From Tubulanus polymorphus (Eukaryota > Animalia > Nemertea), in contig NC_134029.1 of NCBI RefSeq assembly GCF_964204645.1, positions 11,124,850 to 11,188,849 of the forward strand: 64,000 bases of DNA. Reading direction: 5' to 3'. Shown here piece after piece: positions 110 through 63,646 of the stretch (positions within the stretch are counted from its first letter, which is position 1; each line of letters begins with the position of its first letter). The notes beneath the pieces were generated by a model. The model made no database searches. It was given only the letters and a program-made list of their open reading frames with translations, and had not been told where the DNA came from. The position numbers and the translations under genes are program-made.

Positions 110-1376
110 TAATACATAACACTTTTAATTGAGAATTTACAATATTTAATTGCGCGTCAGATATAATATAAATATGCATTTTGATGCATTTTGATGATAA
201 ATATGCATTTTAGGCTTCCTTTTTTCTTTGTCATGAATAATTGTATTCCATCTTTAGTGTTTTGTAATTTTTTTCCAGAACCATGTAATGAATTATCCTC
301 TGTTGTTCTAAAATCTAACCATAATGCATATTTATTACCGGTATAATAATCAATTTGATTAATATAACAATTTTCAGATGATTTTACTTTTTCATTCATA
401 AAATATTTTCTAATTTCTGGCCATTGATCAATCATTCTCATTCCTTGACAAAATATTTTATTTGCTATTCCTTCGATAGTTATTTCTACTTTTGTTATTT
501 CAGGATTATAATAATTATCAACATTTATTGCACCATTAGTATATGTTGCAATGGTAAAAAATATTAATATACCTTTAATAGATCTTCTTGGGAAGTTAAT
601 ATTCTCATTAATTATTTCATCATTTGCATTAATAGTTACAGTTTTAAATTTATCAATATAATCATATAATAATGAAAATCCTTGATTGTATTGAGTTTGA
701 ATTGTACTAGCAATATTTTCATTAGTTACTGTGTCATATTCTAAACATATATTCGATAATTTATAACCCATATCTTTAACAACGCTAGATAATACAATTT
801 CATTTACAGGAGCAAATGTTATTTCTAATATAACATCTTCTTGAATTGCATATTTATATAAAGGTGCATTATTATTTATCAATTCAAAGTCTAATGGAAT
901 TTTATATTTGCTTCCATATATACTTTTTATCAATTTATCTATAGAATTAGTTAATATTGCATTATGTGCTTCTGATCTTAATTTATTTTGGTTTTCTGAT
1001 TGGATTCCTTGAAATATCATATTATTTCTATTTTCTTTAGTTAACCATAAATCTTTATAATGCATAAATAAATTAAAATCATCTAATGAGAAAACTGTTT
1101 CTGGACCGATCTTTATTGTTAATTTTTTAATCAAATATCTTCCAACATTATCAACAACATAATTATTATTATTACCGATTACTTTTATATCGGCTGATAA
1201 ATAAATACTATTTGGAACATAAAAATATTTTGTGTTAATCGAGGAATTCTAACATATAAAGTTTCATCAGGATTAATATTATAAGGGTTATGAGTAATTA
1301 TATGATGTGATCTTTCTGCTTTAATAGCATTAGATATTCTATGATTCTTAGAAGGATTGATATAACTCCCACTCAT
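110..1376 (-). pseudogene. Major capsid protein (double jelly-roll), frameshifted
   Basis: ORFs 1185-1376 and 157-1134 join across a 1-nt deletion near 1225 relative to copy C; small duplication near the 3' end. ITHNP..I...ETLYVRIP and ALWLDFRT..DNSLHGSG motifs; beta-rich, ~415 aa. Confidence 0.75.
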
Positions 1377-1399
1377 TTATTTAACAAAAAAATTAATTA

Positions 1400-2830
1400 T
1401 TTATTTTTATCATGTTTACTAACCCAAAAATAATAGCACTTACAACTGTAATTAAAAATAAAATAATATGTTCAGCAGCAAAGTTAATAATGTTTCCTGC
1501 AGATTTCAATATAAAACCAACAATTGATGCAATAATTCCTGGTAATGCTGCAGCAGATTTTTTAAGAAAGTTCCCATAAATATTTTGCTAATTTTTTTAA
1601 ACCATCCTTAACCTTATCTTGTATAGAATTATTATCATTCGGGGGTTTATCCGGTTTATTGGGAGTAGGAGTAGATTTCAATGAATTTGATATTGCTAAA
1701 CCAATTGTTGTAAATAACATAGTTACAGCTGTTAGAATTGAAAGAATTGTTATTCCTTCTAATTTAAATAATAACTTTATTCTATCTTTTAATGATATTT
1801 CAGAATTTGGTTTTATCAACAAATTTTAAAAAATAACTTTTAATCTATTAATATTATAACCATATGATTTTAATAATAATTTAATTTCTTCTTTCTGTAC
1901 TTCTAAATTATCTTTTAAATTATTAATTTCTTTTTCTAAACGTAATTCTTTTTGTCTATATTCTATTTCATCAATTACTTGATGATCTAAATCAGACTTT
2001 AGTTGTTCTATTTCTTTATTTGCATTAGTTAATTCTTTTTCCAAATACATAATTTTTTGATCTCTTATACTTTTATTATGTGCAATTTTATCAGCTTCAT
2101 TTCTTATACTAATAATTTCTCTAATTGCTTCATCAGAAAATATATTTAAATCTTCTAATTGTTGATCTGTTGCATCAATTAATCCATTCGGTAAAAGTTT
2201 TTCAATTGGAACTTTATTTGATTTAAGTTTACTAGTTTTGGAAGTTATATTCTGTTCAGAAGTTGTTTCTGTTTCTGATTTCTTTTTGATTATTTCAAAT
2301 AATTCATTAATTCTTTGTTTAAATACGTCTATATCATTACCAGTTAATTCTTGTTTTATAACATCAGTTATTACATTACTATTACTAATTCTTTTAATTC
2401 TATCTGGATCTAAATTACTCAAAGTTGATTTTGTTAATATTTTGTTTTGTTTTTTATAAGAGATATCAATATAATAATCATCTTTCAAATGATAATACCA
2501 TTTACCATTATCTAAAAATTTTAATTGATCTGCTAAAGGTCCAACGTCTTCATCATTTATGTTAAGTTTAGAATTTTCAATTATACGTTCTAATTTAGGT
2601 ATTTTGTTTAAATTATCTAAATCTTGTTTTACTAAATCTGGGTCTAAATTTACAGGATTTAATTGTGATTCTGCATTTTTAATATAATCAGGCATATCTA
2701 AATTATTATTATATTCTGGCTCATTACCGTCATTAAAACTTGTTTCATCAAAATCAGGTTGTTGTTCATTAGTTGTGCCAGGTTCATCAAAATTATCCAT
2801 TCCAATATCTTCTCCACCTTCTACATCCAT
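1400..2830 (-). pseudogene. Acidic/coiled-coil protein with C-terminal hydrophobic helices, frameshifted
   Basis: ORFs 1826-2830 and 1562-1822 plus downstream frame; the C-terminal part matches 60058-60500. 3' end approximate. Confidence 0.75.
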
Positions 2831-3157
2831 TTACATAATAAAAAAATTAAAATTCAAAATATAATATTCCCCCGATTACAATTCCTATACAAGTTATAGC
2901 TAATTTAGTATTTTCATGGGATTTATTATCATCATTTAGTTTAATTATATCATGTTGAATATTATCAGTTTTTATATCTTCTGATGTATTGTAATCTTTT
3001 ATTTTAGAATCATTATTTTATTCAATATTCTTAGTTTTAGTTTCTGTTGAATGAATGTTTTTTATTTTTTTCACCTTCCATTAATTTTGGAGCAGTAATA
3101 ATCTTTTTATTTATATCATTTAATCCAAATGAATTATTTATTGTTGCAGTTTTAATT

Positions 3158-5443
3158 CAGAAGGGCCACACCCTAGACTTAGTGATCACTCGTGAAACCG
3201 ATAAATGTGTATCAAATTTTATCGTTGATACGTCATTGCCGTCAGATCATAGTCTTATTGTATTTAATTCGTTTTTATCTAAACCGTTTCCGTTGACGGT
3301 CGAACGTGTGTCGAGGAACCTCCGAGCGGTGGATAAGAACGTGTTACTGGAAACAGTTCGCAACATATCTTTTGAGAATTTCGAGACCGGGACTGTTAAT
3401 TCTTTGGCGAATGACTATGATGCTAAGATGAAGTCAGTTTTGGACTATCTAGCGCCAGAAAAGACTAAAACTTTCACCGATAAGCCTCGCGCTCCATGGT
3501 ATGGACCCAATCTCCAGGCTGCTAGGCGTGTTTTACGTAGCCACGAACGGAAGTGGATCTCATCCAAATTAGAGGTCGATAAACAGATTTATCATGCCAA
3601 TCGGATTGAGTACCATAGTTTGTTGCAAGAAGCCTCAAGATCCTATCATCGCGGTCGGATAGCAGACTGTACCGATCAGAGAAAGTTATTCACCCTTGTC
3701 GATGAATGGACAAGTGATAAGAAGTCTGTAATTTCCGCGCTGCCAGAGCACAGCAATCCCAAAGAACTGGCTAATCGATTTTCTGATTTTTTTGTTGTGA
3801 AAATTGGCAAATTATGTAATTCTTTTATTGATGTACCACTCCCTCGGTTTCCTTTTATAGATCTTGGTCATTCCTTCAATAGTTTTAGTACGGTTACTGA
3901 AAAGTCTCTCAACGACATTATCACTTCAATGACCAATAAGTCATGTTCAATTGATCCGATTCCCACTACTTTTCTAAAACAATGTTTACCTGAAGTTTTA
4001 CCAAAGTTAGTCGATATTTTTAACTTGTCCCTCACTGAGGGCACAGTTCCTGACTCTTTCAAAATAGCAACAGTCAGGCCAATGTTGAAAAAGCCAGGTC
4101 TTAATTCAAATGTTTTATGTAACTATCGACCTGTCTCTAATCTACCTTTTATCAGTAAAGCTATAGAGCGGCATGTATTGAATGATTTGAGTCAGTATTT
4201 ATCCGATAATAACCTCTTCTCAACATTTCAGTCTGCCTATAGGAAGTTCCATAGCACCGAAACGGCAGTTTTAAAAGTACACAATGATATTTTGTTAGCT
4301 CTTGATAATCACGATGAAGTAGTGCTCGTCTTATTAGATCTAACTGCGGCTTTTGACACCATAGATCACGGGATTCTATTGAATAGATTACAGAATCGGT
4401 ATGGAGTGAAAGATGTTCCTTTAGAATGGTTTAGGTCATATTTAGAAAATAGGTATCAGCGTGTCGTGATTGACAGATCGTCATCTCAAAATGTTAAACT
4501 CATGTGTGGTGTACCTCAGGGGAGTGTACTAGGCCCTTCACTTTTCAGTTTATATCTTGCACCAATCGAAGAAATTATTATTAAACATTAACTCGACTTA
4601 ATGTTATATGCCGATGATACCCAGATTTATTTCGTCTGCAAGAGTTGTGCAGCTTCTAAATCAAGAGTTGAGAAGTGTGTTGACGAAATAAAGGAATGGT
4701 TGAAGTGCAATAGACTTGTTTTTAATGATAGTAAGACAGAGGCTATACATTTTACGTCAAAATTTCGTAAGGGAGACAAGCTATCAAGTATTAGAATAGG
4801 AGATGACAGTATAGCTACTTGTCAGTCAGTCAGAGATCTTGGCTTTTATTTCGATCATAATTTTACCATGTCTTGTCATATATCTTACGTCTGTAGATCG
4901 ATTTCTTACTCCCTGCATCGCATTGGTAAAATACGCAAGTTTTTAGATCGCACTAGCACCGAAAGATTCATTCACGCTTTTATAACTTCCAAATTAGATT
5001 ACTGTAATAGTCTTCTCTACGGTCTTCCGAATTGTTATATTTCTCGCCTACAAATGCTTCAAAATTCTGCCGCACGCCTAGTCACTCTAACTAAGAAGCA
5101 CGAGCATATCACTCCTATACTGTATGAACTACATTGGCTCCCTGTTCAATCGCGCATTGAATACAAAATTCTCCTGTTAACTTTTAAAATTTTGCATGAC
5201 CAAGCACCAGCCTATCTTTCGTCTGTTTTAACCACTCTTACACCTTCCAGACACACGCGCTCGACCGTGGCAACTAAATTATTTGAACCGAGATACCGCC
5301 AAGAATTTTATGGCTCTCGAGCTTTTGCGGTGGTAGCCCCCCGCCTTTGGAATGCTTTGCCACAGTCGATGCGCGACTTATCTTCCCTTAATAGTTTTAC
5401 CTCGCAATTGAAAACGCACCTATTTAATCAGCACTACAAATGA
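3158..5443 (+). pseudogene. LINE ORF2 (partial endonuclease + reverse transcriptase) with one nonsense codon
   Basis: NYRPVSNL, LLDLTAAFDTIDH, GVPQGSVLGP, YADD, LHWLPV; in-frame TAA at 4589-4591 between same-frame ORFs. Confidence 0.92.
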
Positions 5444-5594
5444 TTTTACTTGAATCAACCGTTTGAAATTAAATATCTATTTTATTGGGTAATATTTTAT
5501 ATATCTGTCAATTGTCTTATGTTTTTGTCAATTTGTAAAGTCTGTTGAGATATTTTATTTAACGGACTGTAAATAAATATTATTATTATTATTA
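3158..5594 (+). mobile_element. 5'-truncated L2/CR1-group non-LTR retrotransposon
   Basis: End of APE domain (GHTLDLV..SDH), RT motifs, AATAAA+(ATT)n tail. Flanked by TTAATT at 3152-3157 and 5595-5600; empty site visible in copy C near 62094. Confidence 0.92.
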
Positions 5595-6690
5595 TTAATT
5601 AGATTATTATAACCAATTATATTTCCCATCTTTAATACTAAATCATTAGAAATAATTAATAGATTAGGGCCTATACAATAATTTAAACTAATATGTGATT
5701 TATCTAAATAATTTTGATATCTTACAATGTTTTCTGGAATCGATCTATTTTTATCATTATGAATGGAATCTTCAAATAATACTTTGAATTGTTTCTGTGT
5801 ATCAAATGATGTATTTAAATTTCCAATTATTGGGGATCTTGTTTCAACCTGTGATCCTAGAAAACATATCAAATAAGTTCTAATAGATTGATTTATTCTT
5901 TGTATACCTGATTTAGTAAAACCTTCACTATTTTCTAAAATAAAATAAACCCAACCATTATTGTTTTCTTGTTTTAAATTATCATAAAATTTCGGTAATT
6001 TATTGAAATTTATGTTTCTAAATCCTTTGTTTCTATTTTACCATAACCTAATTTATTATTATAGATATTATAAAAGCTATTAGATCGTATGGGAAGTGTA
6101 CAATATGCTGCAACATTTTCAGGGCAAGGAAGTGATCTTATTGTACCAATTTTTGTTCTAAAATCAGAATTATTTATATCTATATTAAATTCATTGCAAA
6201 TTTTATAAAACTTTGATAAATTAATATGATTATCTAATTCTTTAAAATACCTAGATCCTGGTAAAGCACACTCTAATTCATTTAATATTATTCTGATTTG
6301 AAAGTATGTATGAAATCTAAATAAACTTTGAATTAATTTATATTTAGAATTATTCAATGATCATTCCAACTAATTCCACAACCTGTTGTTGCACAATAAA
6401 CAGCAAAATTTAATTGGTTCTGACAATACTTCATATTAGATTTTAATAACCATTGTTTTTCATCTTTCAATTTCTTAAAATTAATGAAATATACATGAAA
6501 TATATTTTCCATCTTAGCATTAAAATTATTAGTTTCAGCAACATAAATTTCTAAATTGGTTAATGAATCTAAAACTTCATTTCTATACGTAATATCTTTA
6601 TTAAAATCTATTGCTGGAATATTATATTTAATTGATTTATTATATTGGAAAGCTTTTGGAAAACTATCTACCATTTAAATAATTAAAATA

Positions 6691-7116
6691 TTAATAATTA
6701 ACTAATTCTTTTAATAATTTATCTTGTTCTTCAACTGTTATATGACCATTTAAACTTATTGTATAATCTAGTGTATTCTTTAATTTATTAATTTCTTTTA
6801 TATTAGTTTTAATTTTTTCTTTATTACTTTTTATATTTAATTTTGAACTTATACCAGTTAAAACACTTGAACTTAATCCTAATACACCAATTGATATAGC
6901 TAAAGATGTTAATGGACTGAATATTGCTAAAAATGTTATTACAGAACTAATTGTAACCGAACCACTAATAATAAGATAATATATAATTTTACTTTTTAAA
7001 TATTTTTTCTTTTTTATCTTTAAATCACTTTCATATTCTAATATTTGTTTTTCTAAATATATTTTCAATTTAGTTTTATTTATATCATGAGGAATAATAT
7101 CAATATTATCATCCAT
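6691..7116 (-). CDS. Viral membrane protein (hydrophobic hairpin flanked by Lys-rich coils)
   Basis: Intact 141 aa with two hydrophobic segments; homolog at 63192-63626; TAAATG start. Confidence 0.8.
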   Translation of the reverse strand: MDDNIDIIPHDINKTKLKIYLEKQILEYESDLKIKKKKYLKSKIIYYLIISGSVTISSVITFLAIFSPLTSLAISIGVLGLSSSVLTGISSKLNIKSNKEKIKTNIKEINKLKNTLDYTISLNGHITVEEQDKLLKELVNY

Positions 7117-7136
7117 TTATTTAGCAAAAAAAATTA

Positions 7137-7559
7137 CTAATTAGCAAATCTATATGCTACAAATATAACAATAACAGTTCCACCTAAAATCCATATTATT
7201 TCATATTTCTGTTGTTCTTTACTTCGGGTATAATAATCCGATAATTTATGTTTGTATAGATGTAATTTTTCTTCATTGGCTACTGCGTTATATAAACTCA
7301 TTGCATCATCGACTGATTGAAAATCTCTATGTGAAATCTTCTGATCATATAATTCCTTGTTAATATAATCCATATAGTTTTGCCTCTTTTCTCTATATTC
7401 TTCTGCTGCTTTATTGTATTTTTCTAACGCTAAGTTATGTCTTCTTTGTTCTCCTAATGAACTATTTTTATCAATATGCTTAAATAAATAACCACCACCA
7501 GTAAATGCTAAAGCGTTAACAATTGCCGATCCTATAATAGTTATAATTGCAGAAGCCAT
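7137..7559 (-). CDS. Viral membrane protein (N-terminal hydrophobic peptide, coil, C-terminal TM)
   Basis: MASAIITIIGSAIVNALAFTGGGYLF...IIWILGGTVIVIFVAY; homolog at 63647-64000. Confidence 0.8.
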   Translation of the reverse strand: MASAIITIIGSAIVNALAFTGGGYLFKHIDKNSSLGEQRRHNLALEKYNKAAEEYREKRQNYMDYINKELYDQKISHRDFQSVDDAMSLYNAVANEEKLHLYKHKLSDYYTRSKEQQKYEIIWILGGTVIVIFVAYRFAN

Positions 7560-7583
7560 TTATTTAGCAAAATAATTACGCAT

Positions 7584-7805
7584 TTATATGGGAGGAATAT
7601 ATTTTTGTTTTTCCAAATAATCAATAGTTAAGTTAGATAAAGTAACTGCTAATGTTAATTTTAAAATATCATTTATATCAAATTTATCAACATTAACACT
7701 TCCCATTTTGAATACTTTTTTTAATACCATTGAATAACCAACAGTTCCAACTGATAGTAATGCTCCATTATATAATCCATTTATTATCCACTTATTATCA
7801 CTCAT
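7584..7805 (-). CDS. Small hydrophobic viral protein
   Basis: 73 aa, tightly packed in the gene array, TAAATG start. Confidence 0.65.
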   Translation of the reverse strand: MSDNKWIINGLYNGALLSVGTVGYSMVLKKVFKMGSVNVDKFDINDILKLTLAVTLSNLTIDYLEKQKYIPPI

Positions 7806-8161
7806 TTATTTATCAAAAAACATTTATCAAAATATTTAGTTATCTTATTTATAATTATTTCAACATTTATTTCATTACTAGTTTCATGATTATCATATAT
7901 TTTGGTTAATATGTTTTTAATATCAGCTATGAAAAAATCTTCATCTAATTTATAATATCTTAAAGATCCTCCAATTAAATTAGTAATCTTTTCTACATTT
8001 AAAGTTTCTTTATCTATTGTTTTTTCATACTCAAATGTTGTTTCATTAGAAAATGCAATATTTTTAATATGTGTAATTACATCATTAATGTTCAATTTCA
8101 TTTCTTTCTCATGTTTAAAATCAAACCCAAAACATATACTCGGTCCAACAGTTATATTCAT
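7802..8161 (-). CDS. Hypothetical viral protein
   Basis: 119 aa, TAAATG start, 4-nt overlap with the next gene. Confidence 0.65.
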   Translation of the reverse strand: MNITVGPSICFGFDFKHEKEMKLNINDVITHIKNIAFSNETTFEYEKTIDKETLNVEKITNLIGGSLRYYKLDEDFFIADIKNILTKIYDNHETSNEINVEIIINKITKYFDKCFLINK

Positions 8162-8177
8162 TTATATAATGAAAAAA

Positions 8178-8930
8178 TTACTCTCTACATCTTATAACTA
8201 ATTCATATATCACAGGAAAGTTATTTAAATCAATTAAATATCCATTATGATTTCTTATTTCTAATTTGAAATTATTGAAATGTGGAATGCAAGGTTTAAA
8301 ATCACATTCTGTTAAATTATAATTTATTTGAGTTCCAAATTGTTTAACATTTTTTAATGGTAAAATATTTAGTATACTAGAATTGCAAGTTTTATCTTTA
8401 GTTGCTTCAAATGTTTTTGTAGGGTCAATTAAATTGCAATAAATATAGAAATGTGTGTAAGGTATTATATTTGGTGTAGTATCAACATTTGAATAAAGTT
8501 TATCTGGTGTAATTCCTAACAGTTTAGCTACAGGTTTTTTAACTGAAAATTGATATTTTTCATTATGAGCTAACCTTATCTTCATTTTATTAGAATTATC
8601 ACTTTTCAAAAATCTAATGTTAAATCCAGCATCACTTCCTAATTTGATCCGAGCTTTTTTATTAATTTCTTGCGTTAACGATTCTAAATTATATAACCCT
8701 GGTTTTAAAAATAGATAATTCCATTTATTCTTACTCCTGATTGAAAAAAATATATGTTCAAGACTTTTATCCGATACATTGTAAAAAGAATTACATGAAC
8801 TTATATTAACTAATTTTAAATCAACACAATTCTTAAATTCTTTATCTAATTGAACTAGTAAATTATGTGATTTATAATTTGTAAGTTTTCTAAAATCAAC
8901 AAATATTCTGTATTCTTTTAATTCTACCAT
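8178..8930 (-). CDS. Minor capsid (penton-like single jelly-roll) protein
   Basis: N..YNVS, PGLYNL, AKLLG, YIYCNLI, EIRNHNG.LIDLNNFP pattern typical of polinton minor capsids. Confidence 0.7.
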   Translation of the reverse strand: MVELKEYRIFVDFRKLTNYKSHNLLVQLDKEFKNCVDLKLVNISSCNSFYNVSDKSLEHIFFSIRSKNKWNYLFLKPGLYNLESLTQEINKKARIKLGSDAGFNIRFLKSDNSNKMKIRLAHNEKYQFSVKKPVAKLLGITPDKLYSNVDTTPNIIPYTHFYIYCNLIDPTKTFEATKDKTCNSSILNILPLKNVKQFGTQINYNLTECDFKPCIPHFNNFKLEIRNHNGYLIDLNNFPVIYELVIRCRE

Positions 8931-8947
8931 TTATTTTACATATTTTC

Positions 8948-9301
8948 TTATTCGAAATCTATTTCATGGTGCCCTTTTTCATTCTTACCTTTGTATACGA
9001 AATAGAAATCTCCAGAACATAATTCTTCTAGATCTTCACTTGATAATCTATGAAATCTATCTGGTAAATATGTTCTGAATTTATATGTATTTCCTTTAAA
9101 TCCTTCATATTCTAAGTGTATAACTAATTTATCTCCATATTTGTTAGTAACTGTATCAATATTTGTAATTAGATATTTCTTATGGATTATTAATTCTTTT
9201 AACTTCTTAAATTTATAATCTACTGATTTGACATTTGAAGTATCTTTTATTCTATCTAAAAATAATTTGTTGTTCTCACTGTGCGCTTGTTTACTCTCCA
9301 T
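8948..9301 (-). CDS. Small beta-rich protein, possible ssDNA-binding (OB-like)
   Basis: KL.EL...Y.I......NKYG......YLP.RF pattern, next to polB; function inferred only. Confidence 0.5.
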   Translation of the reverse strand: MESKQAHSENNKLFLDRIKDTSNVKSVDYKFKKLKELIIHKKYLITNIDTVTNKYGDKLVIHLEYEGFKGNTYKFRTYLPDRFHRLSSEDLEELCSGDFYFVYKGKNEKGHHEIDFE

Positions 9302-9330
9302 TTATAATACATATTTTTATTAAAATTTGA

Positions 9331-42975: not shown

Positions 42976-42994
42976 ATGTTCTCTTTTATAGATC

Positions 42995-52049: not shown

Positions 52050-52129
52050 CTTAAAATATTCATATATATGAATAACATTTAAATCATTGAACTTCTAAAA
52101 TCAATTTTAATAAAAAATATAGTATTAAA

Positions 52130-52390
52130 ATGGAAGCAAATAAGTACTACTGCCCAACATGTAATATCGATATAGATAAATCCCAAAAAGCAAGACACAA
52201 TAAAACTAGAACACATTTAGAAAATAAATTGAAACTAGAATATTCAGAACAGTTAACAAAAGGAAAGAAATTTATTGAATTATGGAACACTGATCCAAAT
52301 AATGAACAATACGTTGAGGATACGATGTTTATACTAGAAAATGATTCTATTTTAGCCTATATACATTCAATGTACAGAGCTATAGAATAA
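52130..52390 (+). CDS. Small zinc-finger ORF starting in the terminal repeat
   Basis: YYCPTC...RHNKTRTH nearly identical to the polB N-terminus of A; 3' half resembles the C-terminus of 53554-54234. Confidence 0.55.
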   Translation: MEANKYYCPTCNIDIDKSQKARHNKTRTHLENKLKLEYSEQLTKGKKFIELWNTDPNNEQYVEDTMFILENDSILAYIHSMYRAIE

Positions 52391-53084: not shown

Positions 53085-53416
53085 GAATTTTTATGTTCAG
53101 TCGTTTCTATTATGTTTAACGCATGCGCATTAAGCAAAACCGGCCATAAATGGCCGCATGTGACACATGTAACGCATGTGACGAGGGACATGAATGCGTT
53201 TGAATTTTCTATGTTCAGTTGTTTCTATTTTACAGAATTTATAGAATGAATATATAATTAGGATTAACACATGTGCATTGATCAAAACCGGCCATAAATG
53301 GCCGCATGTGACACATGTAACGCATGTGTTGTTTCTATTTTACAGAATTTATAGAATGAATATATAATTATGATTAACGCATGCGCATTAAGCAAAACCG
53401 GCCATAAATGGCCGGC
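53085..53416. repeat. Three imperfect direct repeats containing GGCCATAAATGGCC palindromes
   Basis: CAAAACCGGCCATAAATGGCCG near 53135, 53283 and 53393. Confidence 0.85.
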
Positions 53417-53553
53417 CGCTTGTATTATTTGGATATCAAGGAACTGAAACGACTTATCAAAAGCAGCGAGGAATGAAAAAGGATGACGTTGGTCGAAGAA
53501 ATGGAAGAGGATTATAAAATATTAACCAATTTTAATAAAAATACGTATAATAA

Positions 53554-54234
53554 ATGGAACCAGAACAATCACAAGCTATAAATATAAACAATAAGAAATG
53601 TTCTAAATGTAAAATAAATAAACAACTCTCGGAATATTATAATTATAAAACTCAGAAAGATGGTAAGCAAAGTTATTGTAAAATTTGTAGTAAACTAAGT
53701 GACAAACAAAATTATAGAAATAATACCGAAACACGCAAAGATAAAAATAAGCAATGGAAAGAAAATCATTTAGAACATATTAAAGTGTATAATAGAAATT
53801 ATCATAAAGAAAGATATCAAACAGATTTTAATTTTAAAATGAAACAATGTTTGAGATCTAAAGTATCAAAATTATTCAGTAAAGAAAACCACTCAGTTAC
53901 ACTAGCACATTTATTGGATTGTTCAGATAAATTTCTCAAATCATGGATTATATATCAATTCGATGATAAAATGAATATAGATAATTATGGGGATTATTAC
54001 CATATTGATCACGTGTTACCAATATCTAAATTTAACATGAATGATGAATACAATAAAAAACTTATTTGGAATTGGAAAAATTTAAGACCTTTAGAAAAGA
54101 AAGAAAATCAAATCAAATCTAATAAAATAGATTTACAGTTATATTTGAATCAACTGGAAAAAGTAAAAAAATTTATTGAATTATGGAATTCAACACATAA
54201 TGAACAATACGTTGAGTCTTTAATGAGTGGTTAA
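53554..54234 (+). CDS. Zinc-ribbon + HNH endonuclease
   Basis: KKCSKC......Y.....KDG..SYCK.C and HIDHV.P.S.F......NW.NLRPL...EN..KSNK. Confidence 0.85.
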   Translation: MEPEQSQAININNKKCSKCKINKQLSEYYNYKTQKDGKQSYCKICSKLSDKQNYRNNTETRKDKNKQWKENHLEHIKVYNRNYHKERYQTDFNFKMKQCLRSKVSKLFSKENHSVTLAHLLDCSDKFLKSWIIYQFDDKMNIDNYGDYYHIDHVLPISKFNMNDEYNKKLIWNWKNLRPLEKKENQIKSNKIDLQLYLNQLEKVKKFIELWNSTHNEQYVESLMSG

Positions 54235-54483
54235 AGAATAATAGATTTTAAATAAAAAGTATTTAAAAAACAATAACTTCAACTAGCTAGCGAATTCTAT
54301 TATATTTTTAATATTTTCTTTTCAAAAAGAGAATACTTTATATTTTGAATAGATCCGAATAGAAATTCTTTAAATTCAAATAGCTAGTATCAGTAGTCAA
54401 TACTAGAGTTCTTTAACTTTAACTATCTAGTATCATTTGAAGAATATTTATAATATTTTTTTTGCTTTTTTTCTCTAATATAA

Positions 54484-55086
54484 ATGTCAAAGAAATCTAA
54501 TAAGAATAGTATTGATATTGAAAAGACATTAGATGATTTAGGTATTAGTGATAATAAAGATACAGTTGTTTCTAATTCTACTCAAGTTAATAACAATATT
54601 GATTATGAATACTATTTATATTGTAAACACCATCTTGAATTATTAATTGCCGGTGGAAAAACTAAAGAGTTTATTGGTAAAACAATAACTTTTCAAGAAT
54701 TAGATAATATGAATAAAGAAAAAGTAATAAAATATTTTAAGATTTATGAAGAAGCTCGATTAGCTAGAATAAATGATTCTATTTCAGATGGTATTGTCAA
54801 ATGTTATTCTAAGTTATGTAACCAGTTAATACCAATTGATGATGAAAATAAATTATATAATGATTTGAAAAATGACTATTTAGTTATGACTGAATTACAA
54901 AAATGGGTTGGATATGCTTCATTTCAATTAGGATCGGTTATGACATTAATTTCTACTGGTGTCATAACATTTTCGAACATCAAACCTATGGAATATAAAT
55001 CAGGTAAGAACGAAACAGATGTACTACAACCAAACAGTGAAACAGAAAATGAATCAGAACAAAAATTAACTAAAATAAATGAGTGA
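54484..55086 (+). CDS. Hypothetical viral protein
   Basis: Intact 200 aa with T-run + TAAATG start. Confidence 0.75.
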   Translation: MSKKSNKNSIDIEKTLDDLGISDNKDTVVSNSTQVNNNIDYEYYLYCKHHLELLIAGGKTKEFIGKTITFQELDNMNKEKVIKYFKIYEEARLARINDSISDGIVKCYSKLCNQLIPIDDENKLYNDLKNDYLVMTELQKWVGYASFQLGSVMTLISTGVITFSNIKPMEYKSGKNETDVLQPNSETENESEQKLTKINE

Positions 55087-55489
55087 TGGAGTTAAGAAAA
55101 AGGCTAGATCAGAGAAACAAATTAAATGGGCAAGAGAATTAGGTAAAAGATCATCAGAATTAAAAAAAGCTAAGAAAAAGAAATTAACTGATATAAATGA
55201 ATCACAGAAATTATCTGATGGTGCCGTACAGCACCCACACGGTGGTATTGATTCAAATAATAATCCATCTGATTCTTCTAATAGTGGAAGAAATAATTAC
55301 TTATATATTACAATTGGGTTAATCACAATTATTATATTCTCCGGTGTAATATATAAATCAAAATTCAATTCTGATGATAAAGATGATTCCGATGATCGGA
55401 AACTTAGTTATCCGTGTACAGACAATAAACCTATCATACCAGAAAATAAATCAAATGAAAATAAATCTAAAATATTATTAATGGATTAA
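55079..55489 (+). CDS. Basic N-terminus, single-TM protein
   Basis: YLYITIGLITIIIFSGVIY hydrophobic segment; TAAATG start. Confidence 0.7.
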   Translation: MSDGVKKKARSEKQIKWARELGKRSSELKKAKKKKLTDINESQKLSDGAVQHPHGGIDSNNNPSDSSNSGRNNYLYITIGLITIIIFSGVIYKSKFNSDDKDDSDDRKLSYPCTDNKPIIPENKSNENKSKILLMD

Positions 55490-55492
55490 AAT

Positions 55493-56581
55493 ATGATGAA
55501 AAAAGAACAATATTTAAGAGATTTATATTATAATCCAGAAAGTGAAGTTTCATATTCAAGTGTTTCAGAATTATGGAATAAAATTAAATCTGATAAAGAA
55601 AAAATAAAATATAGTGAATTAAAATCATGGTTACAAAATCAACCCACATATCAAATTCATAAAAAGATGGATAAAAAATATTTAACAAGAAAAGTAATGG
55701 TTTCATATATTGACCAACAATGGCAAGCTGATTTAATTGATATGAAAAACTTAGAAGAATATAACAAAGGATATTTTTGGATACTAAATGTTATAGATAT
55801 ATTCAGTAGATACGCATGGAGTATCCCGATTAAAAATAAAACTGGTATAGAAGTTACAAATTCTTTCAAATTAATATTTAAAGAAGCTATCCCAGATAAA
55901 ATACAATTTGATGAAGGTAAAGAATTTTATAACAAACATTTTAAAAAACTATTAACTGATAACGATGTAGAATATTTTTCAACACATTCAGATAAAAAAG
56001 CATCTGTTATAGAAAGATTTAATACAACATTGAAAACTAGAATGTGGAAATATTTCACCGCTAATGAAACATATAAATATATCGATGTGTTAGATGATTT
56101 AGTTAAAGGTTATAATAATTCTAAACATAGTTCTATAAATATGAAACCTATACAAGCTAGAAAAGAAGAAAATTCAGAAATAGTTTGGAATAATTTATAT
56201 GGTGCGTTTGTTACACATGATTTTGGAGAACCTAAATTTAAAATAGGACAACATGTTAGAATTTCTAAATATCGAAAAACATTTTATAAAGGTTATACCC
56301 CTAATTTTACTGAAGAAATATTTAAAATTAAAAAGATAATATTAACTAAACCATTTGTTTATAAATTGTCTGATTTAAAAGATGAAGAAATATTAGGTTA
56401 TTTTTATGAACAAGAATTATCATTAGTACCAAATCCAGATGAAATAGAATACAAAATAGAAAAAGTATTGAAAACAAAAACTCTTAAAGGAAAAAAGTAT
56501 TCTTTGGTGAAATATAAAGGATATGATGATAAATCTAATGAATGGATTTTATCTAGTAAAATTAAAAGAATAAATGAATAA
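55493..56581 (+). CDS. Retroviral-like integrase with C-terminal chromodomain
   Basis: WQADLID, IDIFSRYAW, QFDEGKEF, IERFNTTLK, LVKYKGY....NEW. Confidence 0.95.
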   Translation: MMKKEQYLRDLYYNPESEVSYSSVSELWNKIKSDKEKIKYSELKSWLQNQPTYQIHKKMDKKYLTRKVMVSYIDQQWQADLIDMKNLEEYNKGYFWILNVIDIFSRYAWSIPIKNKTGIEVTNSFKLIFKEAIPDKIQFDEGKEFYNKHFKKLLTDNDVEYFSTHSDKKASVIERFNTTLKTRMWKYFTANETYKYIDVLDDLVKGYNNSKHSSINMKPIQARKEENSEIVWNNLYGAFVTHDFGEPKFKIGQHVRISKYRKTFYKGYTPNFTEEIFKIKKIILTKPFVYKLSDLKDEEILGYFYEQELSLVPNPDEIEYKIEKVLKTKTLKGKKYSLVKYKGYDDKSNEWILSSKIKRINE

Positions 56582-57188
56582 AGATTTGTTTATATTTGAA
56601 CCACATAATATGTTAGTTACTGGAGTTACAAATTGTGGTAAAACACACTTCATATTATATTTATTAGAAACTATTTATAAAAATCATTTTGATAATATAA
56701 TATTATTCTGCCCAACTTATGAAATGAATGAAACGTATAATAGAGATATAGTTTTTAAAGATAAAAAGTTTATTATATTAAATTCTAAAACAGTGAAAGA
56801 TAATTTAGATAATTGTATAAAAATTGCATTAGATATTTATAAAGGATCTAATACATTATTTATTATCGATGATTGCGCAAATTTACATGATTCTAAAATT
56901 AGAGAAAGTGAGTTATGTTATTTAGCTTTCTCTGGTAGACATTTTGGGATAACAACTTGGGTTTTAAATCAGAAATATAATTCAATTGTGAAAGATTTTA
57001 GAGAGAATATAAGATTTCTAGTTTTATTCTACAACAAAGATAGAAAATCTATGCAACAATCATTGGAAGAAAATCAAATTATACCTACTGAATTACATGA
57101 TGAATATATGAATAAATTAAAGAATAATAAAGGTTCAAAATTATTAATGAGATTACAATTTCCATATGAATATAAATTTATAAAATAA
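56574..57188 (+). CDS. A32-like packaging ATPase
   Basis: GVTNCGKT, FIIDD, GRH, Q.Y......REN. Confidence 0.92.
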   Translation: MNKDLFIFEPHNMLVTGVTNCGKTHFILYLLETIYKNHFDNIILFCPTYEMNETYNRDIVFKDKKFIILNSKTVKDNLDNCIKIALDIYKGSNTLFIIDDCANLHDSKIRESELCYLAFSGRHFGITTWVLNQKYNSIVKDFRENIRFLVLFYNKDRKSMQQSLEENQIIPTELHDEYMNKLKNNKGSKLLMRLQFPYEYKFIK

Positions 57189-57206
57189 AATCCTAATTTG
57201 GAATAT

Positions 57207-57570
57207 TATAGAAACTAATTTATATATCTATGTACTAGACGTACGAGTAAGAAAGTAAGATTCTTACCTTTTTACTTTCTTGGCAAGAATCTTGGATTCT
57301 TACGTACGTCTAGTCCATAAAAATATGAATTATTAAATGAAATATATAATAATGAATAAATCATATATTAAAACTATGTTTATAATTTATATTTATAATT
57401 TATATTTATAATTTATGTTTATAATTTATATTTATAATTTATATTTATAATTTATGTTTATAATTTATGTTTATAATCTATGTTTATAATTTATATTTCT
57501 TGGCAAGGATTCTTGGATTCTTACTTTCTTACTCGTACGTCTAGTGCATAGATATATAAATAGTTTTATA
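57207..57570. repeat. Inverted repeat enclosing a 12-bp AT-rich tandem array at a convergent gene junction
   Basis: TATATATCTATGTACTAGACGTACGAGTAAGAAAGTAAGA and its reverse complement at 57520-57559; (TTTATAATTTATR)n between them. Confidence 0.85.
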
Positions 57571-57594
57571 GATATATAAATAGTTTTATAATAA

Positions 57595-58728
57595 TTATTC
57601 TAATTTTGTTTCTAATACATTTATAAAATCATCTTCGTTTATATCAAATTCTCCATAAGTCTTTGGTATATTTATTGAGTTTAGTCGATCCATCATTAAT
57701 CTATAATCAGTAGGCATATTAATTTTTTCTTTTATTTTTTCAAAGTTTTCATCAAAATCATAATAATAAAAATCACTATCATATCCAAAATTAATTATCA
57801 AATAAGTTGAATCTTTTCTTCTCAAATATAATAATTTATACATTTGTTCAAGATTATCGTTTGCATAATCTAAAAATTTATGTAATAACAAATTATAGAA
57901 TATATCATATTGGTTAATATTATAATCAAAATATTTTATATATTCTAAAGGGTTATTTAACAATGGTAACATACCCACTTTTTTATAAACATTAATTAGA
58001 TGTAATTTTGATTTATAATGAGTAATTTTATCAACAGGTTCAGTTTCTTTATTACAATAATCACATATTAATTCTTTTTCATTTTCTATGTGCCACTTAG
58101 ATTTTTTATGTTTAGAAAAATTACTTTTAGAAATATCTAAATTACAAATGTTACAATGTTTTTTAGAATCATCAATTATTTCATTATCTGTTATATCATT
58201 ATCATTAGTTTCAATTGGGTTAACATTATTTATTACATTATCTGTTATATTATCTATGGTATCATTAGTTTCAATTGGGTTAACATTATCTTTTATATTA
58301 CTAACTGATATATTATTATCATTATTATTCTTTTCTTTTTCTATATGTTTCTTTGATTTCTTATGTGATGCCCAATTTTTATATGATATATATTTCTTAC
58401 ATACATCACAATATTTTTCATTTATCTTTTTGGTTTTGATATCAGGTTCAATCTTATCATAATTCGATGTAGAAGGTATAACATTATCTTCTATTTTAGA
58501 TTCAATATCATCTTCTATTTTATATTCAATATCATTCTTATCTTCTATTTTAGGTTCAATATTATCTTCTATTTTTGTTTCAATATTCTTATCTATTTTA
58601 CTTATTCTATATTTGAATTGATTAAAGTAATCTCCAAAATACTTACTGTATTCATCATAAGGTAATATATAATATATATCTGATATCATTTCACTTGGAG
58701 TTTGTATTTCATATATTCCACCTTCCAT
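57595..58728 (-). CDS. Protein with three matrin/U1-type zinc fingers and acidic repeats
   Basis: CDVC...HKKSKKH, CNIC...HKKSKWH, CDYC...HYKSKLH; KIED repeats. Confidence 0.8.
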   Translation of the reverse strand: MEGGIYEIQTPSEMISDIYYILPYDEYSKYFGDYFNQFKYRISKIDKNIETKIEDNIEPKIEDKNDIEYKIEDDIESKIEDNVIPSTSNYDKIEPDIKTKKINEKYCDVCKKYISYKNWASHKKSKKHIEKEKNNNDNNISVSNIKDNVNPIETNDTIDNITDNVINNVNPIETNDNDITDNEIIDDSKKHCNICNLDISKSNFSKHKKSKWHIENEKELICDYCNKETEPVDKITHYKSKLHLINVYKKVGMLPLLNNPLEYIKYFDYNINQYDIFYNLLLHKFLDYANDNLEQMYKLLYLRRKDSTYLIINFGYDSDFYYYDFDENFEKIKEKINMPTDYRLMMDRLNSINIPKTYGEFDINEDDFINVLETKLE

Positions 58729-58760
58729 TTATTATATATATTTTTATTAAAGTTAAAATT

Positions 58761-60013
58761 TTAATACATAACACTATCTAATTGTGAATTTACAATATTT
58801 AATTGCGCGTCAGATATAATATAAATGTGCATTTTAAAATTTTTGATTCCCTTTTTCTTTGTTATGAATAATTGTATTCCATCTTTAGTGTTTTGTAGTT
58901 TTTTTCCAGAACCATGTAATGAATTATCCTCTGTTGTTCTAAAATCTAACCATAATGCATATTTATTACCGGTATAATAATCAATTTGATTAATATTACA
59001 ATTTTCAGATGATTTTATTTTTTCATTCATAAAATGTTTTTTAATTTCTACCCATTGATCAATCATTCTCATTCCTTGACAAAATATTTTATTCGCTATA
59101 CCTTCGATAGTTATTTCTACTTTTGTTATTTCAGGATTATAATAATTATCAACATTTATTGCACCATTAGTATGTAGTACGTTCCAATAGTAAAAAATAT
59201 TAATATACCTTTAATAGATCTTCTAGGAAAGTTAATATTCTCATTAATTATTTCATCATTTGCATTAATAGTTACAGTTTTAAATTTATCAATATAATCA
59301 TATAATAATGAAAACCCTTGATTGTATTGAGTTTGAATTATACTTGAAATATTTTCATCAGTTACTGTATCATATTCTAAACATATATTCGATAATTTAT
59401 AACTCATATCTTTATTAACGCTAGATAATACAATTTCATTTACAGGAGCAAATGTTATCTCAAATATAATATCTTCTTGAATTGCGTATTTATATAAAGG
59501 TGCATTATTATTTATCAATTCAAAGTCTAATGGAATTTTATATTTGCTTCCATATATACTTTTTATCAATTTATCTACATCATTAGTTAATATTGCGCTA
59601 TTAGCTTCTGATCTTAATTTATTTTGGTTTTCTGATTGAATTCCTTGAAATATCATATTATTTCTATTTTCTTTAGTTAACCATAAATCTTTATAATGCA
59701 TAAATAAATTATAATAATCTAATGAAAAAACTGTTTCTGGACCAATCTTTATTGTTAACTTTTTAATCAAATATCTTCCAACATTATCAACAACATAATT
59801 ATTATTATTACCGATTACTTTTATATCAGCTGATAAATAAATACTATTTGGAACATAAAAAGTATTTTGTGTTAATCGAGGGATTCTAACGTATAAAGTT
59901 TCATCGGGATTAATATTTGAAGGGTTATGAGTAATTATATGATGTGATCTTTCTGCTTTAATAGCATTAGATATTCTATGATTCTTCGAAGGACTTATAT
60001 AACTCCCACTCAT
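58761..60013 (-). pseudogene. Major capsid protein, single frameshift
   Basis: Homolog of 110-1376; ~5 extra nt near 59170-59180 relative to A split the ORF. Confidence 0.78.
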
Positions 60014-60057
60014 TTATTTAACAAAAAAATTAATTATTTATTTTTTGATATCATGGT

Positions 60058-61770
60058 TTACTTGATATTTTTTGATATCATATTTACTAAACCAAAAATA
60101 ATAGCACTTACAACTGTAATTAAAAATAAAATAATATGTTCAGCAGCAAAGTTAATAATGTTTCCTGCAGATTTCAATATAAAACCAACAATTGAAGCAA
60201 TAACTCCTGGTAAAGCTGCAGCAGATTTCTTTGATAGTTCCCATAAATATTTTGCTAATTTCTTTAAACCATCCTTAACTTTATCTTGTATAGAATTATT
60301 ACCTGGAGGTTTATCTGGTTTATTGGGAGTGGGAGTAGGAGTAGATTTTAAAGCATTTGATATTGCTAAACCAATTGTTGTAAATAACATAGTTACAGCT
60401 GTTAGAATTGAAAGAATTGTTATTCCTTCTAATTTAAATAATAACTTTATACTGTCTTTTAATGATATTTCAGAATCTGGTTTAATCAACAAATCTTTAA
60501 AAATAACTTTTGATTTTTTAATATGATTAAGATCATATGATTTTAATAATATATCTCTTTCTTCTTTTTGTAATTTTATGTTATATTCTAAATCATATAT
60601 TTCTTTTACTAAAACTAACTTTCTGCTTTCAAAATCAGCTTCATAAACTACTTGATGATCTCTATTTAATTCTAATTGTTTTAATTCTTCATCTACATTA
60701 ACTAATTCTTTTTCTAATATGGTTATTTTAGAAAATCTCATCTTAATATTAGCAATTTCACCAGCTGATTCATGCATACCTTTAATTTCTCTACGTGCTT
60801 GTTCAGGAAATGCTTCTAATTCATCATCAGTTAAATCAAGTAATCCTTTTTCTAGTAAAGATTGTATTCGATTTATTCTAGTTTCAGTACCGGGCGTATC
60901 TAAAATACTAATCATATCTTCTTCAAATGAATTCATTGTATCAATTATTTTACCATAATTTAATTGATTTGAATCATTATCAATTTGTTGAATATCTCTT
61001 CTCGATGTTTCGGGTGTTGAAGATCTCAATCTATCTAATCGATTTCTATTCTCTTCCATTTCTGGATCAAAATCAGTAGGATTTGGATTTGGATTTTTAA
61101 ATGGTGAATATTTGTTTATATCAATATTAGGAATTGGTTCTTCTTCATTTACTCTATCGAGTGCATTCCATATAATTCTGAGAAATTCTGTGCCACCTTT
61201 TGAACGTTCAATTGTAGATGTTGCTCGCATTTCAGGTTCATAAATATTTTCTTGACCCATTTTAGATAATTGAATTGTTACAATATTCCTATTTAAATCA
61301 AGATTATAATACCATGCATCATTTTTAAATTCTAAATTATTTGTGAAATATGGGTCATCTTTAAAAATTTGTTCTACAACACCTTCTGTATCAATTTCAT
61401 GTATTACAACTGTTGGTAATAATTCGTTAACAATTGTATCTGTTACTCTAGATTTCATTTTATATAATTCCTTAGGTTTATCAGGATATTTTTCTTGTTG
61501 TTTTTCTAATACATTCATTAATTCTTTTCTTTCTGTTCTAGTTGTAATTCTATCACTTTTAGGAGCTTCTAAATATTTATTTAATTTTTCACGTACTTCG
61601 GCATTAATTCCATCATCATAATCATCATCTTCACCTCAATTAGTATTATATGCTGATTCATCATCATTATCAATATTAGTTTCTGCATCATTATAATCAT
61701 CATCAATATATCCTTCATTATTATTTCCCATTTCTCCCATTTCATAATCTTCTCCACCTTCTACATCCAT
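60058..61770 (-). pseudogene. Acidic/coiled-coil membrane protein (frameshift near 61635)
   Basis: TAAATG-MDVEGGED start at 61770, as in A at 2830; 486-aa ORF with C-terminal hydrophobic helices. Confidence 0.75.
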
Positions 61771-61786
61771 TTACTTAATAAAAAAA

Positions 61787-63175
61787 TTAAAATTTAAAAT
61801 ATAATATTCCTCCGATTACAATTCCTATACAAGTTATAGCTAATTTAGTATTTTCATGTGATTTATTATCATCATTTAGTTTAATTATATCATGTTGAAT
61901 TTTATCAGTTCTATTATTTTCTGATGTATTGTAATCTTTTATTTTAGAATCATTAACCAATTTAATATTCTTAGTTTTAGTTTCTGTTGATTGAATGTGT
62001 TTTTTATTTTTTTCACCTTCCATTAATTTTGGAGCAGTAATAATCTTTTTATTTATATCATTTAATCCAAATGAATTATTTATTGTTGCAGTTTTAATTA
62101 GATTATTATAACCAATTATATTTCCCATCTTCAATACTAAATCATTAGAAATAATTAATAGATTAGGGCCTATACAATAATTAAGTCTTACATGAGATTT
62201 ATCTAAATAATTTTGATATCTTATAATGTTTTCTGGAATCGATCTATTTTTATCATTATGAATTGAATCTTCAAATAAAACTTTAAACTGTTTTTGTGTA
62301 TCGAATGATGTATTCAAATTTCCAATTATCGGTGATCTTGTTTCAACTTGCGCACCTAAAATACATATCAAATAAGTTCTAATAGATTGATTTATTCTTT
62401 CTATACCTGATTTAGTAAAACCTTCACTATTTTCTAAAATAAAATAAACCCAACCATTATTGTTTTCTTGTTTTAAATTATCATAAAATTTTGGTAATTT
62501 ATTGAAATTTAATGTTTCTAAATCCTTTGTTTCTATTTTACCATAACCTAATTTATTATTATAGATATTATAAAAACTATTAGATGGTATGGGAAGTGCA
62601 CAATATTCTGCAATCTTTCTAGGGCATGGAAGTGATCTTATTGTTCCAATTTTTGTTCTAAAATCAGAATTATTTATATCTATATTAAATTCATTGCAAA
62701 TCTTATAAAACTTTGATAAATTAATATTATTATCTAATTCTTTGAAATACCTAGATCCTGGTAAAGCGCACTCTAATTCATTTAATATTATTCTGATTTG
62801 AAAGTATGTATGAAATCTAAATAAACTTTGAATTAATTTATATTTAGAATTATTCAAATGATCATTCCAACTAATTCCACATCCTGTTGTTGCACAATAA
62901 ACAGCAAAATTTAATTGATTCTGCCAATACTTCATATTAGATTTTAATAACCATTGTTTTTCATCTTTCAATTTTTTAAAATTAATTAAATATACATGAA
63001 ATATATTTTCCATCTTTGCATTAAAATTATTAGTTTCAGTAACATAAATATATAAATCAATTAATGAATCTAAAACTTCATTTCTATATGTAATATCTTT
63101 ATTAAAATCTATTGCTGGAATATTATATTTAATTGATTTATTATATTGGAAAGTTTTTGGAAAACTATCTGCCAT
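61787..63175 (-). CDS. Conserved 462-aa protein with C-terminal TM anchor
   Basis: Intact; WQNQLNFAVYCATTGCG; ends LAITCIGIVIGGILYFKF. Confidence 0.85.
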   Translation of the reverse strand: MADSFPKTFQYNKSIKYNIPAIDFNKDITYRNEVLDSLIDLYIYVTETNNFNAKMENIFHVYLINFKKLKDEKQWLLKSNMKYWQNQLNFAVYCATTGCGISWNDHLNNSKYKLIQSLFRFHTYFQIRIILNELECALPGSRYFKELDNNINLSKFYKICNEFNIDINNSDFRTKIGTIRSLPCPRKIAEYCALPIPSNSFYNIYNNKLGYGKIETKDLETLNFNKLPKFYDNLKQENNNGWVYFILENSEGFTKSGIERINQSIRTYLICILGAQVETRSPIIGNLNTSFDTQKQFKVLFEDSIHNDKNRSIPENIIRYQNYLDKSHVRLNYCIGPNLLIISNDLVLKMGNIIGYNNLIKTATINNSFGLNDINKKIITAPKLMEGEKNKKHIQSTETKTKNIKLVNDSKIKDYNTSENNRTDKIQHDIIKLNDDNKSHENTKLAITCIGIVIGGILYFKF

Positions 63176-63191
63176 TTATATAATTAAAAAA

Positions 63192-63626
63192 TTAATAATT
63201 TATTAATTCTTTTAATAATTTATCTTGCTCTTCAACTGTTATATGACCATTTAAACTTATTATATAATCTAGTGTGTTCTTTAATTTATTAATTTCTTTT
63301 ATATTAGTTTTAATTTTTTCTTTATTACTTTTTATATTTAATTTTGAACTTATACCAGTTAAAACACTTGAACTTAATCCTAATACACCAATTGATATAG
63401 CTAAAGGTGTTAATGGACTGAATATTGCTAGAAATGTTATTACAGAACTAATTGTAACCGAACCACTAATAATCAAATAATATATAATTTTACTTTTTAA
63501 ATATTTTTTCTTTTTTATCTTTAAGTCACTTTCAAATTCTAATATTTGTTTTTCTAAATATGTTTTTAATTTAGTTTTATTTATATCATGAGGAATAATA
63601 TCAATACTATCAACTTTATCTTCCAT
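63192..63626 (-). CDS. Viral membrane protein (homolog of 6691-7116)
   Basis: Near-identical translation. Confidence 0.82.
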   Translation of the reverse strand: MEDKVDSIDIIPHDINKTKLKTYLEKQILEFESDLKIKKKKYLKSKIIYYLIISGSVTISSVITFLAIFSPLTPLAISIGVLGLSSSVLTGISSKLNIKSNKEKIKTNIKEINKLKNTLDYIISLNGHITVEEQDKLLKELINY

Positions 63627-63646
63627 TTATTTAGCAAAAAAAATTA

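Follow-up and report, generated by a model that had tools for sequence, protein, structure and literature searches.

Introduction

Promoter sharing between a small integrating virus and a large virus has a precedent in mavirus, which carries the late motif of Cafeteria roenbergensis virus (CroV) (PMC8547959), and polinton-like viruses (PLVs) associated with entomopoxviruses have also been published (PMC11296320). Animal Polintons and PLVs that sit integrated in their hosts may be autonomous or may depend on a helper, an open question that becomes directly testable where a strict promoter coincides with the start codon. The subject here is a 64,000-nucleotide stretch of the nemertean Tubulanus polymorphus (NC_134029.1, positions 11,124,850 to 11,188,849; the whole stretch is called the window), in which two copies of one PLV family, elements A and C, carry the motif T-N8-TAAATG at most gene starts. 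An earlier note on this DNA had read TAAATG with a T-run as a poxvirus-type late promoter and the elements as virophage-like dependents of a poxvirus-like helper.

A 2025 review describes the late promoter of vaccinia virus as TAAAT, to which the start codon usually adds a G, together with a T conserved at the 10th base upstream (PMC11980589). According to the structure of the intermediate complex, the viral polymerase reads TAAA directly (PMC12917281), and slippage on a TAAAT-type initiator yields poly(A) leaders (PMC6211774). Such a strict TAAAT initiator has been described for poxviruses, other families using other motifs (PMC5294985).

The window holds three Polinton-type elements amid repeat-rich eukaryotic DNA (GC about 36%). 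A and C represent opposite ends of two copies of one family and are 88–94% identical over the blocks they share, whereas element B serves as an internal control.

1..13795, minus strand: element A, a broken PLV copy running past the left edge of the window
33209..49017, no strand assigned: element B, a Maverick of the classic kind, encoding protease, TBP and PC4
51645..64000, no strand assigned: element C, the second family copy with the opposite end visible, running past the window

TAAATG at the gene starts of A and C

TAAATG forms 18 of the 21 starts of A and C, corresponding to 14 of 16 distinct genes. All 18 coordinates listed in the earlier note are indeed an ATG after TAA, and its three exceptions are likewise correct, namely TAAAATG at 13370 and 52130 and TAAAATATG at the integrase start, 55493. 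Elsewhere in A and C, with both strands counted, TAA precedes 53 of 944 ATGs (5.6%), giving a strong enrichment at starts (Fisher p=5e-19; over distinct genes, binomial p=3e-16). Element B lacks the motif, as the earlier note had said of those B starts that it checked: TAA stands before none of its 12 starts. Across positions 14000-35000, TAA precedes 21 of all 804 ATGs. The start caller, which takes the first ATG after a stop, is biased toward TAA; the same procedure returned TAA at 65 of 639 starts (10%) in 60 IMG/VR loci and at none of 85 in sister elements.

The T-run had been placed on almost every gene in one passage of the earlier note and on many in another, and the weaker wording holds: a run of at least four Ts ends 6-8 nucleotides (nt) before TAAATG in 8 of the 14 distinct genes. 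What does not vary is one T at position -12, counted from the A of ATG, found in 14/14 genes against a local T content of 42% (p=5e-6, or 1.3e-4 corrected for 27 positions), and the motif is therefore T-N8-TAAATG. Three motifs in the window lie inside upstream coding sequence (7805, 55079 and 56574); two of these starts, 55079 and 56574, are without a T-run, yet the T at -12 is kept. A mechanical count over 20 loci and the window copies showed that, in agreement with the earlier note, TAA is seldom the stop of the upstream open reading frame (ORF): this is the case for 2 of 78 TAA starts (L029 and one other). Fourteen of these starts are in divergent arrangement, most with a spacing of 15-30 nt, and 8 lie within reach of an upstream ORF that they overlap.

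Depletion tests for AATAAA, splice donors and TTTTTNT did not separate A/C from B, TTTTTNT being low on both strands. A division into two promoter classes (T-run for late, A-run for intermediate) was dropped as unproven, as the A-run starts retain the T at -12 and the class varies within gene families.

Conservation among relatives and sister elements

A profile of 24 capsid homologues led to 56 metagenome loci. In L001-L015, which include three near-copy pairs, TAA precedes 50 of 59 mechanically called starts but 38 of 871 out-of-frame ATGs. Two of these loci, L006 and L007, have a GC content of 0.44 and 0.40 and still show TAA at 5 of 7 starts. In a capsid tree of 32 rows, restricted to loci with at least 280 amino acids (aa), A and C fall in a clade of 16 rows (99/99), 15 of which have TAA at the capsid start (1376 in A); L014 was counted among them, its capsid start reading TGA before ATG and a TAAATG lying 4 nt upstream. 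TAA is also present in four deeper rows, and absent from an 11-row clade (100/100) and from L017. The ATPase tree is consistent with the capsid tree.

Starts anchored by homology gave the same picture. TAA was present at 63 of 74 starts (48 of 59 de-duplicated) in the clade including A and C, at 17 of 38 in deeper or fragmentary loci, and at 0 of 85 in the non-TAA group, the groups having been fixed after the start counts of L001-L015 had been seen. The 19 non-TAA loci were placed by the capsid tree (12), by the ATPase tree (5) or by eye (L031 and L048), with L056 excluded. The clade and the non-TAA group have the core genes in common. Sister elements carry A at -3, the usual context for translation, in 70% of starts, and the AT-rich sisters L021 and L026 (GC 0.26-0.28) have AAA directly before ATG. 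In the clade, the other stop codons are nearly absent from positions -3 to -1 (TAG none; TGA 1/59). T-N8-TAAATG is a clade-wide trait of the lineage and is not explained by base composition.

Some further observations concern the relatives themselves. Six sisters without TAAATG (L017, L022, L024, L027, L043 and L054) have a TATA 6-27 nt before ATG at 15 of 41 starts; the same spacing occurs in 5.9% of background windows, which are mostly coding. L017 also contains a VLTF3-like gene (5082-5579; E 3.6e-5, just under the cut-off). The close relative L001 has a deoxynucleoside kinase gene (10340-10981) with its own T-run TAAATG. A search of IMG/VR with this kinase gave one locus at 37%, L117, with 1 of 15 TAA starts; no relative of the A/C capsid or ATPase was found in IMG/VR. 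A scan of the same database for the promoter pattern returned 60 loci, none with a clade-like share of TAA except L105 (2/3).

Comparison with poxvirus promoters

In A/C, as in poxvirus late and intermediate promoters, TAAAT lies over the start codon and is mostly followed by G, the upstream T stands in a T-rich patch, and an A-rich stretch follows further up. The TAAAATG variant also has a counterpart in the vaccinia G8R promoter. As an orthopoxvirus control, 20 kb of a poxvirus-sized record with this promoter was used (one of 8 loci profiled, 3 of which were counted). Here TAA stands at 10 of 21 starts, with T at -13 in 7/10 and at -12 and -14 in 6/10 each, and then an A-rich stretch. The difference lies in the position of the T. 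In A/C it is at the 9th base before TAAAT in 14/14 genes, as against the 10th in the published promoter (PMC11980589, a review) and -13 in the control; the 10th base is T in 9 of 14 genes of the window and at 45 of 59 clade starts. As far as sequence goes, the match to the poxvirus late promoter is close, with an offset of one base. A/C are unlike poxviruses in that the motif is on nearly all genes, including those adjacent to the polymerase and integrase, in an element without a polymerase of its own for transcription. The 60 IMG/VR loci mentioned above, which were chosen by a similar pattern, show no T peak; a few giant-virus loci in this set come to 31-36% TAA starts.

A proposed poxvirus-type helper and its rivals

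Dependence of A/C on a helper of some large-virus kind is likely. Within this, the best single reading, somewhat more probable than not, is that T-N8-TAAATG is a predicted poxvirus-type late promoter and that A/C would be virophage-like satellites whose transcription falls to a cytoplasmic helper of the poxvirus type. Four points argue for transcription by the helper's polymerase: the spacing is fixed, starts stand back to back, slippage would remove the T at -3, and a polymerase or known factor is lacking. Scans of A/C and of clade ORFs (47 of 95, picked to cover families besides capsid and ATPase) revealed no RNA polymerase subunit and no TBP, PC4 or VLTF3. A/C combine the absence of an own RNA polymerase with promoters like the late promoter of a large virus, as in a virophage lifestyle. 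Moreover, divergent genes have starts 15-30 nt apart, with TAAATG on each, a distance too short for ordinary leaders. In animals, a pyrimidine at -3 makes a poor context for translation; with initiation on AAA and slippage, the T at -3 would never be in the mRNA.

The proposed course of events is as follows. The polymerase of the helper would start at the first A of TAAAT, slip and add a poly(A) leader, as in vaccinia virus, and all A/C genes would be switched on together at the post-replicative phase of the helper. The genome would then be copied by the element's DNA polymerase B of the protein-primed type (pPolB), packaged, and re-integrated by the integrase.

Several points weigh against a poxvirus-type helper. 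No helper virus was found, the host genome lying outside the search, and there was no sign of gene exchange between A/C and a poxvirus. The position of the fixed T, -12, contrasts with the -13 peak of the orthopoxvirus control, and the correlation between the two profiles is 0.34. AATAAA is not avoided in A/C coding sequence (observed/expected 0.94), nor in B (0.90), and is thus non-discriminating. In favour of the reading, T at -12 is found at 55 of 59 de-duplicated clade TAA starts versus 47 of 146 non-start TAAATG sites; most of these control sites, however, are coding and rich in A, so that the contrast is exaggerated, and orthologous promoters are not independent. The 117-aa and 119-aa proteins, with no assigned function, could be transcription factors. 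Lastly, the non-poxvirus giant viruses L091 and L077 together have 9 of 29 TAA starts after removal of the seed site, with T at -12 in 7 of the 9 and a profile correlation of 0.51 with the clade. Of the poxvirus-like helper in the earlier note, a real and clade-conserved motif, the promoter match and the lack of an own polymerase stand, while the one-base offset and the 31-36% TAA starts of non-poxvirus contigs speak against it.

The rival that survives best, although unlikely, is a helper of another kind among the cytoplasmic large DNA viruses (pithovirus/iridovirus-like or egovirus-like) that likewise has TAAATG as its late initiator. The T peak at -12 in L091 and L077 fits this, as do the 9 of 25 TAA starts of the giant-virus locus L068 (seed site again removed), and basal egoviruses have been reported from marine sediments (10.1101/2024.03.23.586382). 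L068, L091 and L077 were, however, picked by a TAAATGG pattern, and unselected stretches of the genome of L077, which is Pithoviridae-related (PMC8575486), show TAA at 4 of 26 starts versus AAA at 13 of 26. Additionally, the strict TAAAT initiator is a published feature of poxviruses, and the motifs of other families differ (PMC5294985). As an observation in its own right, 31-45% of the starts in the giant-virus contigs L068, L077 and L091 have TAA before ATG; Pimascovirales-like viruses may possess a late initiator not yet described.

Nuclear transcription by host polymerase II, with the motif as an initiator for a host factor or for an unrecognised factor of the element, is less likely again. 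The element is integrated and its integrase has a chromodomain, coral polintovirus genes have been reported as expressed (PMC11131425; the family has not been matched to A/C), and self-encoded factors occur in Polintons, as shown by the TBP of the neighbouring B. Candidates for such a factor would be the 117-, 119- and 377-aa proteins, none with an assigned function; the genes of the first two, however, were found only in A and L001 (the loci being partial), while the motif is present across the clade and in deeper branches. The divergent spacing and the 4.3 AATAAA per kb on A/C coding strands also argue against ordinary polymerase II transcripts.

That TAAATG is a feature of translation (coupling of stop and start, protection from N-terminal extension by an in-frame stop, or a start context rich in AT) is very improbable. 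In its favour, TAA forms an in-frame stop codon before ATG, A/C are 77% AT and TAA is the upstream stop in L029 and L030. Against it, upstream stops make up 2 of 78 cases where 14 are divergent, TAG and TGA hardly replace TAA, the T at -12 has no role in coupling, and AT-rich sisters use AAA instead.

A wider proposal may be added, which is doubtful at present: the family would be integrated animal virophages that switch promoter code to suit the helper, the T-N8-TAAATG clades being matched to poxvirus-type and the TATA sisters, one of which has the VLTF3-like gene, to asfarvirus-type viruses. If true, the TAAATG clade would predict that aquatic invertebrates harbour a widespread, unsampled group of relatives of the poxviruses and inherit a SLATT-armed defence against these.

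Genes of A and C and classification

The gene starts and genes of the two copies are given below.

1374..1388, minus strand: T-N8-TAAATG of the major capsid gene of A (start 1376; frameshifts)
2828..2842, minus strand: T-N8-TAAATG of the coiled-coil/membrane-anchor gene of A
6672..6686, minus strand: T-N8-TAAATG of the 462-aa family gene of A (broken; long interspersed nuclear element, LINE, at about 3.2-5.6 kb)
7114..7128, minus strand: T-N8-TAAATG of the SLATT-like two-helix gene of A (6691-7116)
7557..7571, minus strand: T-N8-TAAATG of a 140-aa conserved gene
7803..7817, minus strand: T-N8-TAAATG of a 73-aa conserved gene, within upstream coding sequence
8159..8173, minus strand: T-N8-TAAATG of the 119-aa gene, no assigned function
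8178..8942, minus strand: penton (minor capsid) gene (8178-8930; from a structure model) plus T-N8-TAAATG
9299..9313, minus strand: T-N8-TAAATG of the 117-aa gene, no assigned function
9331..13370, minus strand: protein-primed DNA polymerase B, in pieces (start TAAAATG, A-rich core upstream)
52117..52390, plus strand: copy of the polymerase start (TAAAATG) in the terminal inverted repeat, with an 86-aa zinc-finger ORF
53542..54234, plus strand: HNH-like 226-aa gene with T-N8-TAAATG (HNH is a weak match in a relative only)
54472..55086, plus strand: 200-aa conserved gene with T-N8-TAAATG
55067..55489, plus strand: 136-aa gene, T-N8-TAAATG within upstream coding sequence
55493..56581, plus strand: rve integrase with chromodomain (start TAAAATATG; PF00665 E 9e-9, PF00385)
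56562..57188, plus strand: A32-like packaging ATPase (PF04665 E 8e-12), T-N8-TAAATG within integrase coding sequence
57595..58740, minus strand: 377-aa zinc-finger gene with T-N8-TAAATG, varying among copies
58761..60025, minus strand: major capsid gene of C, frameshifted, T-N8-TAAATG at 60013
60058..61782, minus strand: coiled-coil/membrane-anchor gene of C, broken near its start, T-N8-TAAATG at 61770
61787..63187, minus strand: 462-aa family gene of C, T-N8-TAAATG at 63175
63192..63638, minus strand: SLATT-like 144-aa gene of C (63192-63626), T-N8-TAAATG at 63626

Combined from both copies, the order on the first strand is element end, zinc-finger stub, HNH-like, 200 aa, 136 aa, integrase and ATPase. 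On the other strand it continues with 377 aa, capsid, coiled-coil, 462 aa, SLATT-like, 140 aa, 73 aa, 119 aa, penton, 117 aa, polymerase and the other end. Both copies are broken, with frameshifted capsid genes, the polymerase in pieces and a LINE within A.

The integrase and ATPase lie above Pfam cut-offs. The polymerase of A matches PF03175 below the cut-off (E 6e-4) and is 41% identical to the polymerases of L052 and L016. An intact 78% relative of the A/C capsid (P0002) folds as a double jelly-roll in a structure model. The model of the 250-aa penton (predicted local distance difference test 79.6) has the mavirus penton as its top PDB match (E 1.4e-9). An Atlas search with the 462-aa protein gave no usable match. 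The SLATT-like 144-aa protein matches NF033632 at E 5e-5, below the cut-off; it is a two-helix membrane protein, and the family has several other small membrane proteins. A role as an abortive-infection effector is possible.

With double jelly-roll capsid, penton, A32-like ATPase, pPolB, rve integrase and inverted repeats at its termini, A/C is a polinton-like virus, or a Polinton in the broad sense. It stands outside the Group 1 Mavericks (Polintoviricetes) by both protease and capsid. No adenovirus-type protease was found in A/C by Pfam, and the protease of B matches nothing in A/C or the 56 loci, a very divergent one being possible; the iterated profile of the A/C capsid does not recover the capsid ORF of B. 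It is also outside Lavidaviridae, again by protease and by capsid: in a structure search with P0002, the capsids of mavirus and Sputnik take ranks 41-47, with 10-12% identity, and no protease was found.

The locus and its surroundings

A and C together have a GC content of about 22% (0.21-0.27 in A without the LINE insert). Their ends are palindromic with a variable middle, and the palindrome of B measures 38 nt only.

13603..13795, no strand assigned: terminal imperfect palindrome of A (194 nt, 88%)
51644..52050, no strand assigned: terminal imperfect palindrome of C (407 nt, 78%)

These could be hairpin ends or a head-to-head duplication of the end. The terminal repeat on the 52117 side is a 94% inverted repeat of 13252-13423. 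Between 52400 and 53550, C is non-coding and less AT-rich, with TGACGT boxes and three 87-nt repeats; this stretch has no match among the 56 related loci. Rfam gave no match.

Maverick B has terminal repeats of 128 nt (97%), a 6-bp target duplication, genes for TBP (39975-40502) and PC4 (48055-48483), and a polymerase split close to the end. The LINE in A is a reverse transcriptase inserted at about 3200-5580, within the 462-aa family gene. The host DNA contains a decayed retroelement (21960-23086) and a Tc5/pogo transposase ORF (23556-25241). The spacer between B and C (49068-51644) is itself a high-depth repeat in sequencing run X5, which makes the locus a nest of mobile elements.

Run X5, which comes from another study, covers the core genes of C mostly at about 300-900 fold, compared with 29 fold at the right end of B, these depths being relative only and without a single-copy baseline. 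At 51645 it has 1610 read ends with mixed flanks (agreement 0.34), some of them perhaps from the inner palindrome arm. The depth of C and the mixed flanks indicate many integrated copies of the A/C family. Run X7, which is perhaps RNA, gave a single 22-nt match, too little to bear on expression.

Relation to known systems

Mavirus and the endogenous mavirus-like elements of Cafeteria are integrating and carry pPolB and rve integrase, as does A/C (PMC8547959). Mavirus also has in common with A/C a double jelly-roll capsid, a penton and a gene motif like the late promoter of a large virus. The differences are a capsid of another lineage (10% identity by structure), the lack of a detected protease in A/C, TAAATG instead of TCTA, and an animal host.

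The PLVs of Barth et al. (2024) have likewise been proposed as poxvirus parasites (PMC11296320). They are, however, insect elements with an adenovirus-type protease and without rve integrase. A term search of the available text of that paper found no mention of promoters. In its supplement, whose long entries were covered in part, five of six short motifs of A/C proteins were absent, and the sixth matched an unrelated small protein. Polinton-3_NV/N1A_NV and the PLVs of Octocorallia, Hydrozoa and Bivalvia (10.64898/2026.06.19.733378) combine a Polinton-type replication module with a non-Maverick capsid, like A/C; the anemone PLVs stand in tandem with Mavericks, as A, B and C stand together here. 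The word promoter is absent from the main text of two 2026 preprints on PLV diversity, including the latter. No published description of a motif of the T-N8-TAAATG type in a Polinton or PLV was found in a search that left out most subscription journals.

The motif tells which kind of helper to seek. The same screen could sort Polinton families into self-transcribing ones, such as B with TBP and PC4, and helper-wired ones, such as A/C. If a poxvirus-type helper proves true, virophage-like parasitism of poxvirus-type viruses would be extended to a multicopy integrated lineage, and hosts would be flagged in which poxvirus relatives may be hunted.

A further parallel is offered by the cytoplasmic virus-like elements pGKL1/2 of yeast, which, as described in PMC6211774, are linear pPolB elements like A/C and have a TAAAN initiator with poly(A) leaders. 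Unlike A/C, they carry genes for an RNA polymerase and a capping enzyme of their own but lack both capsid and integrase. Helper-dependent PLVs are already known; what A/C would add to them is promoter evidence, read from sequence, for a poxvirus-type helper in an integrated lineage.

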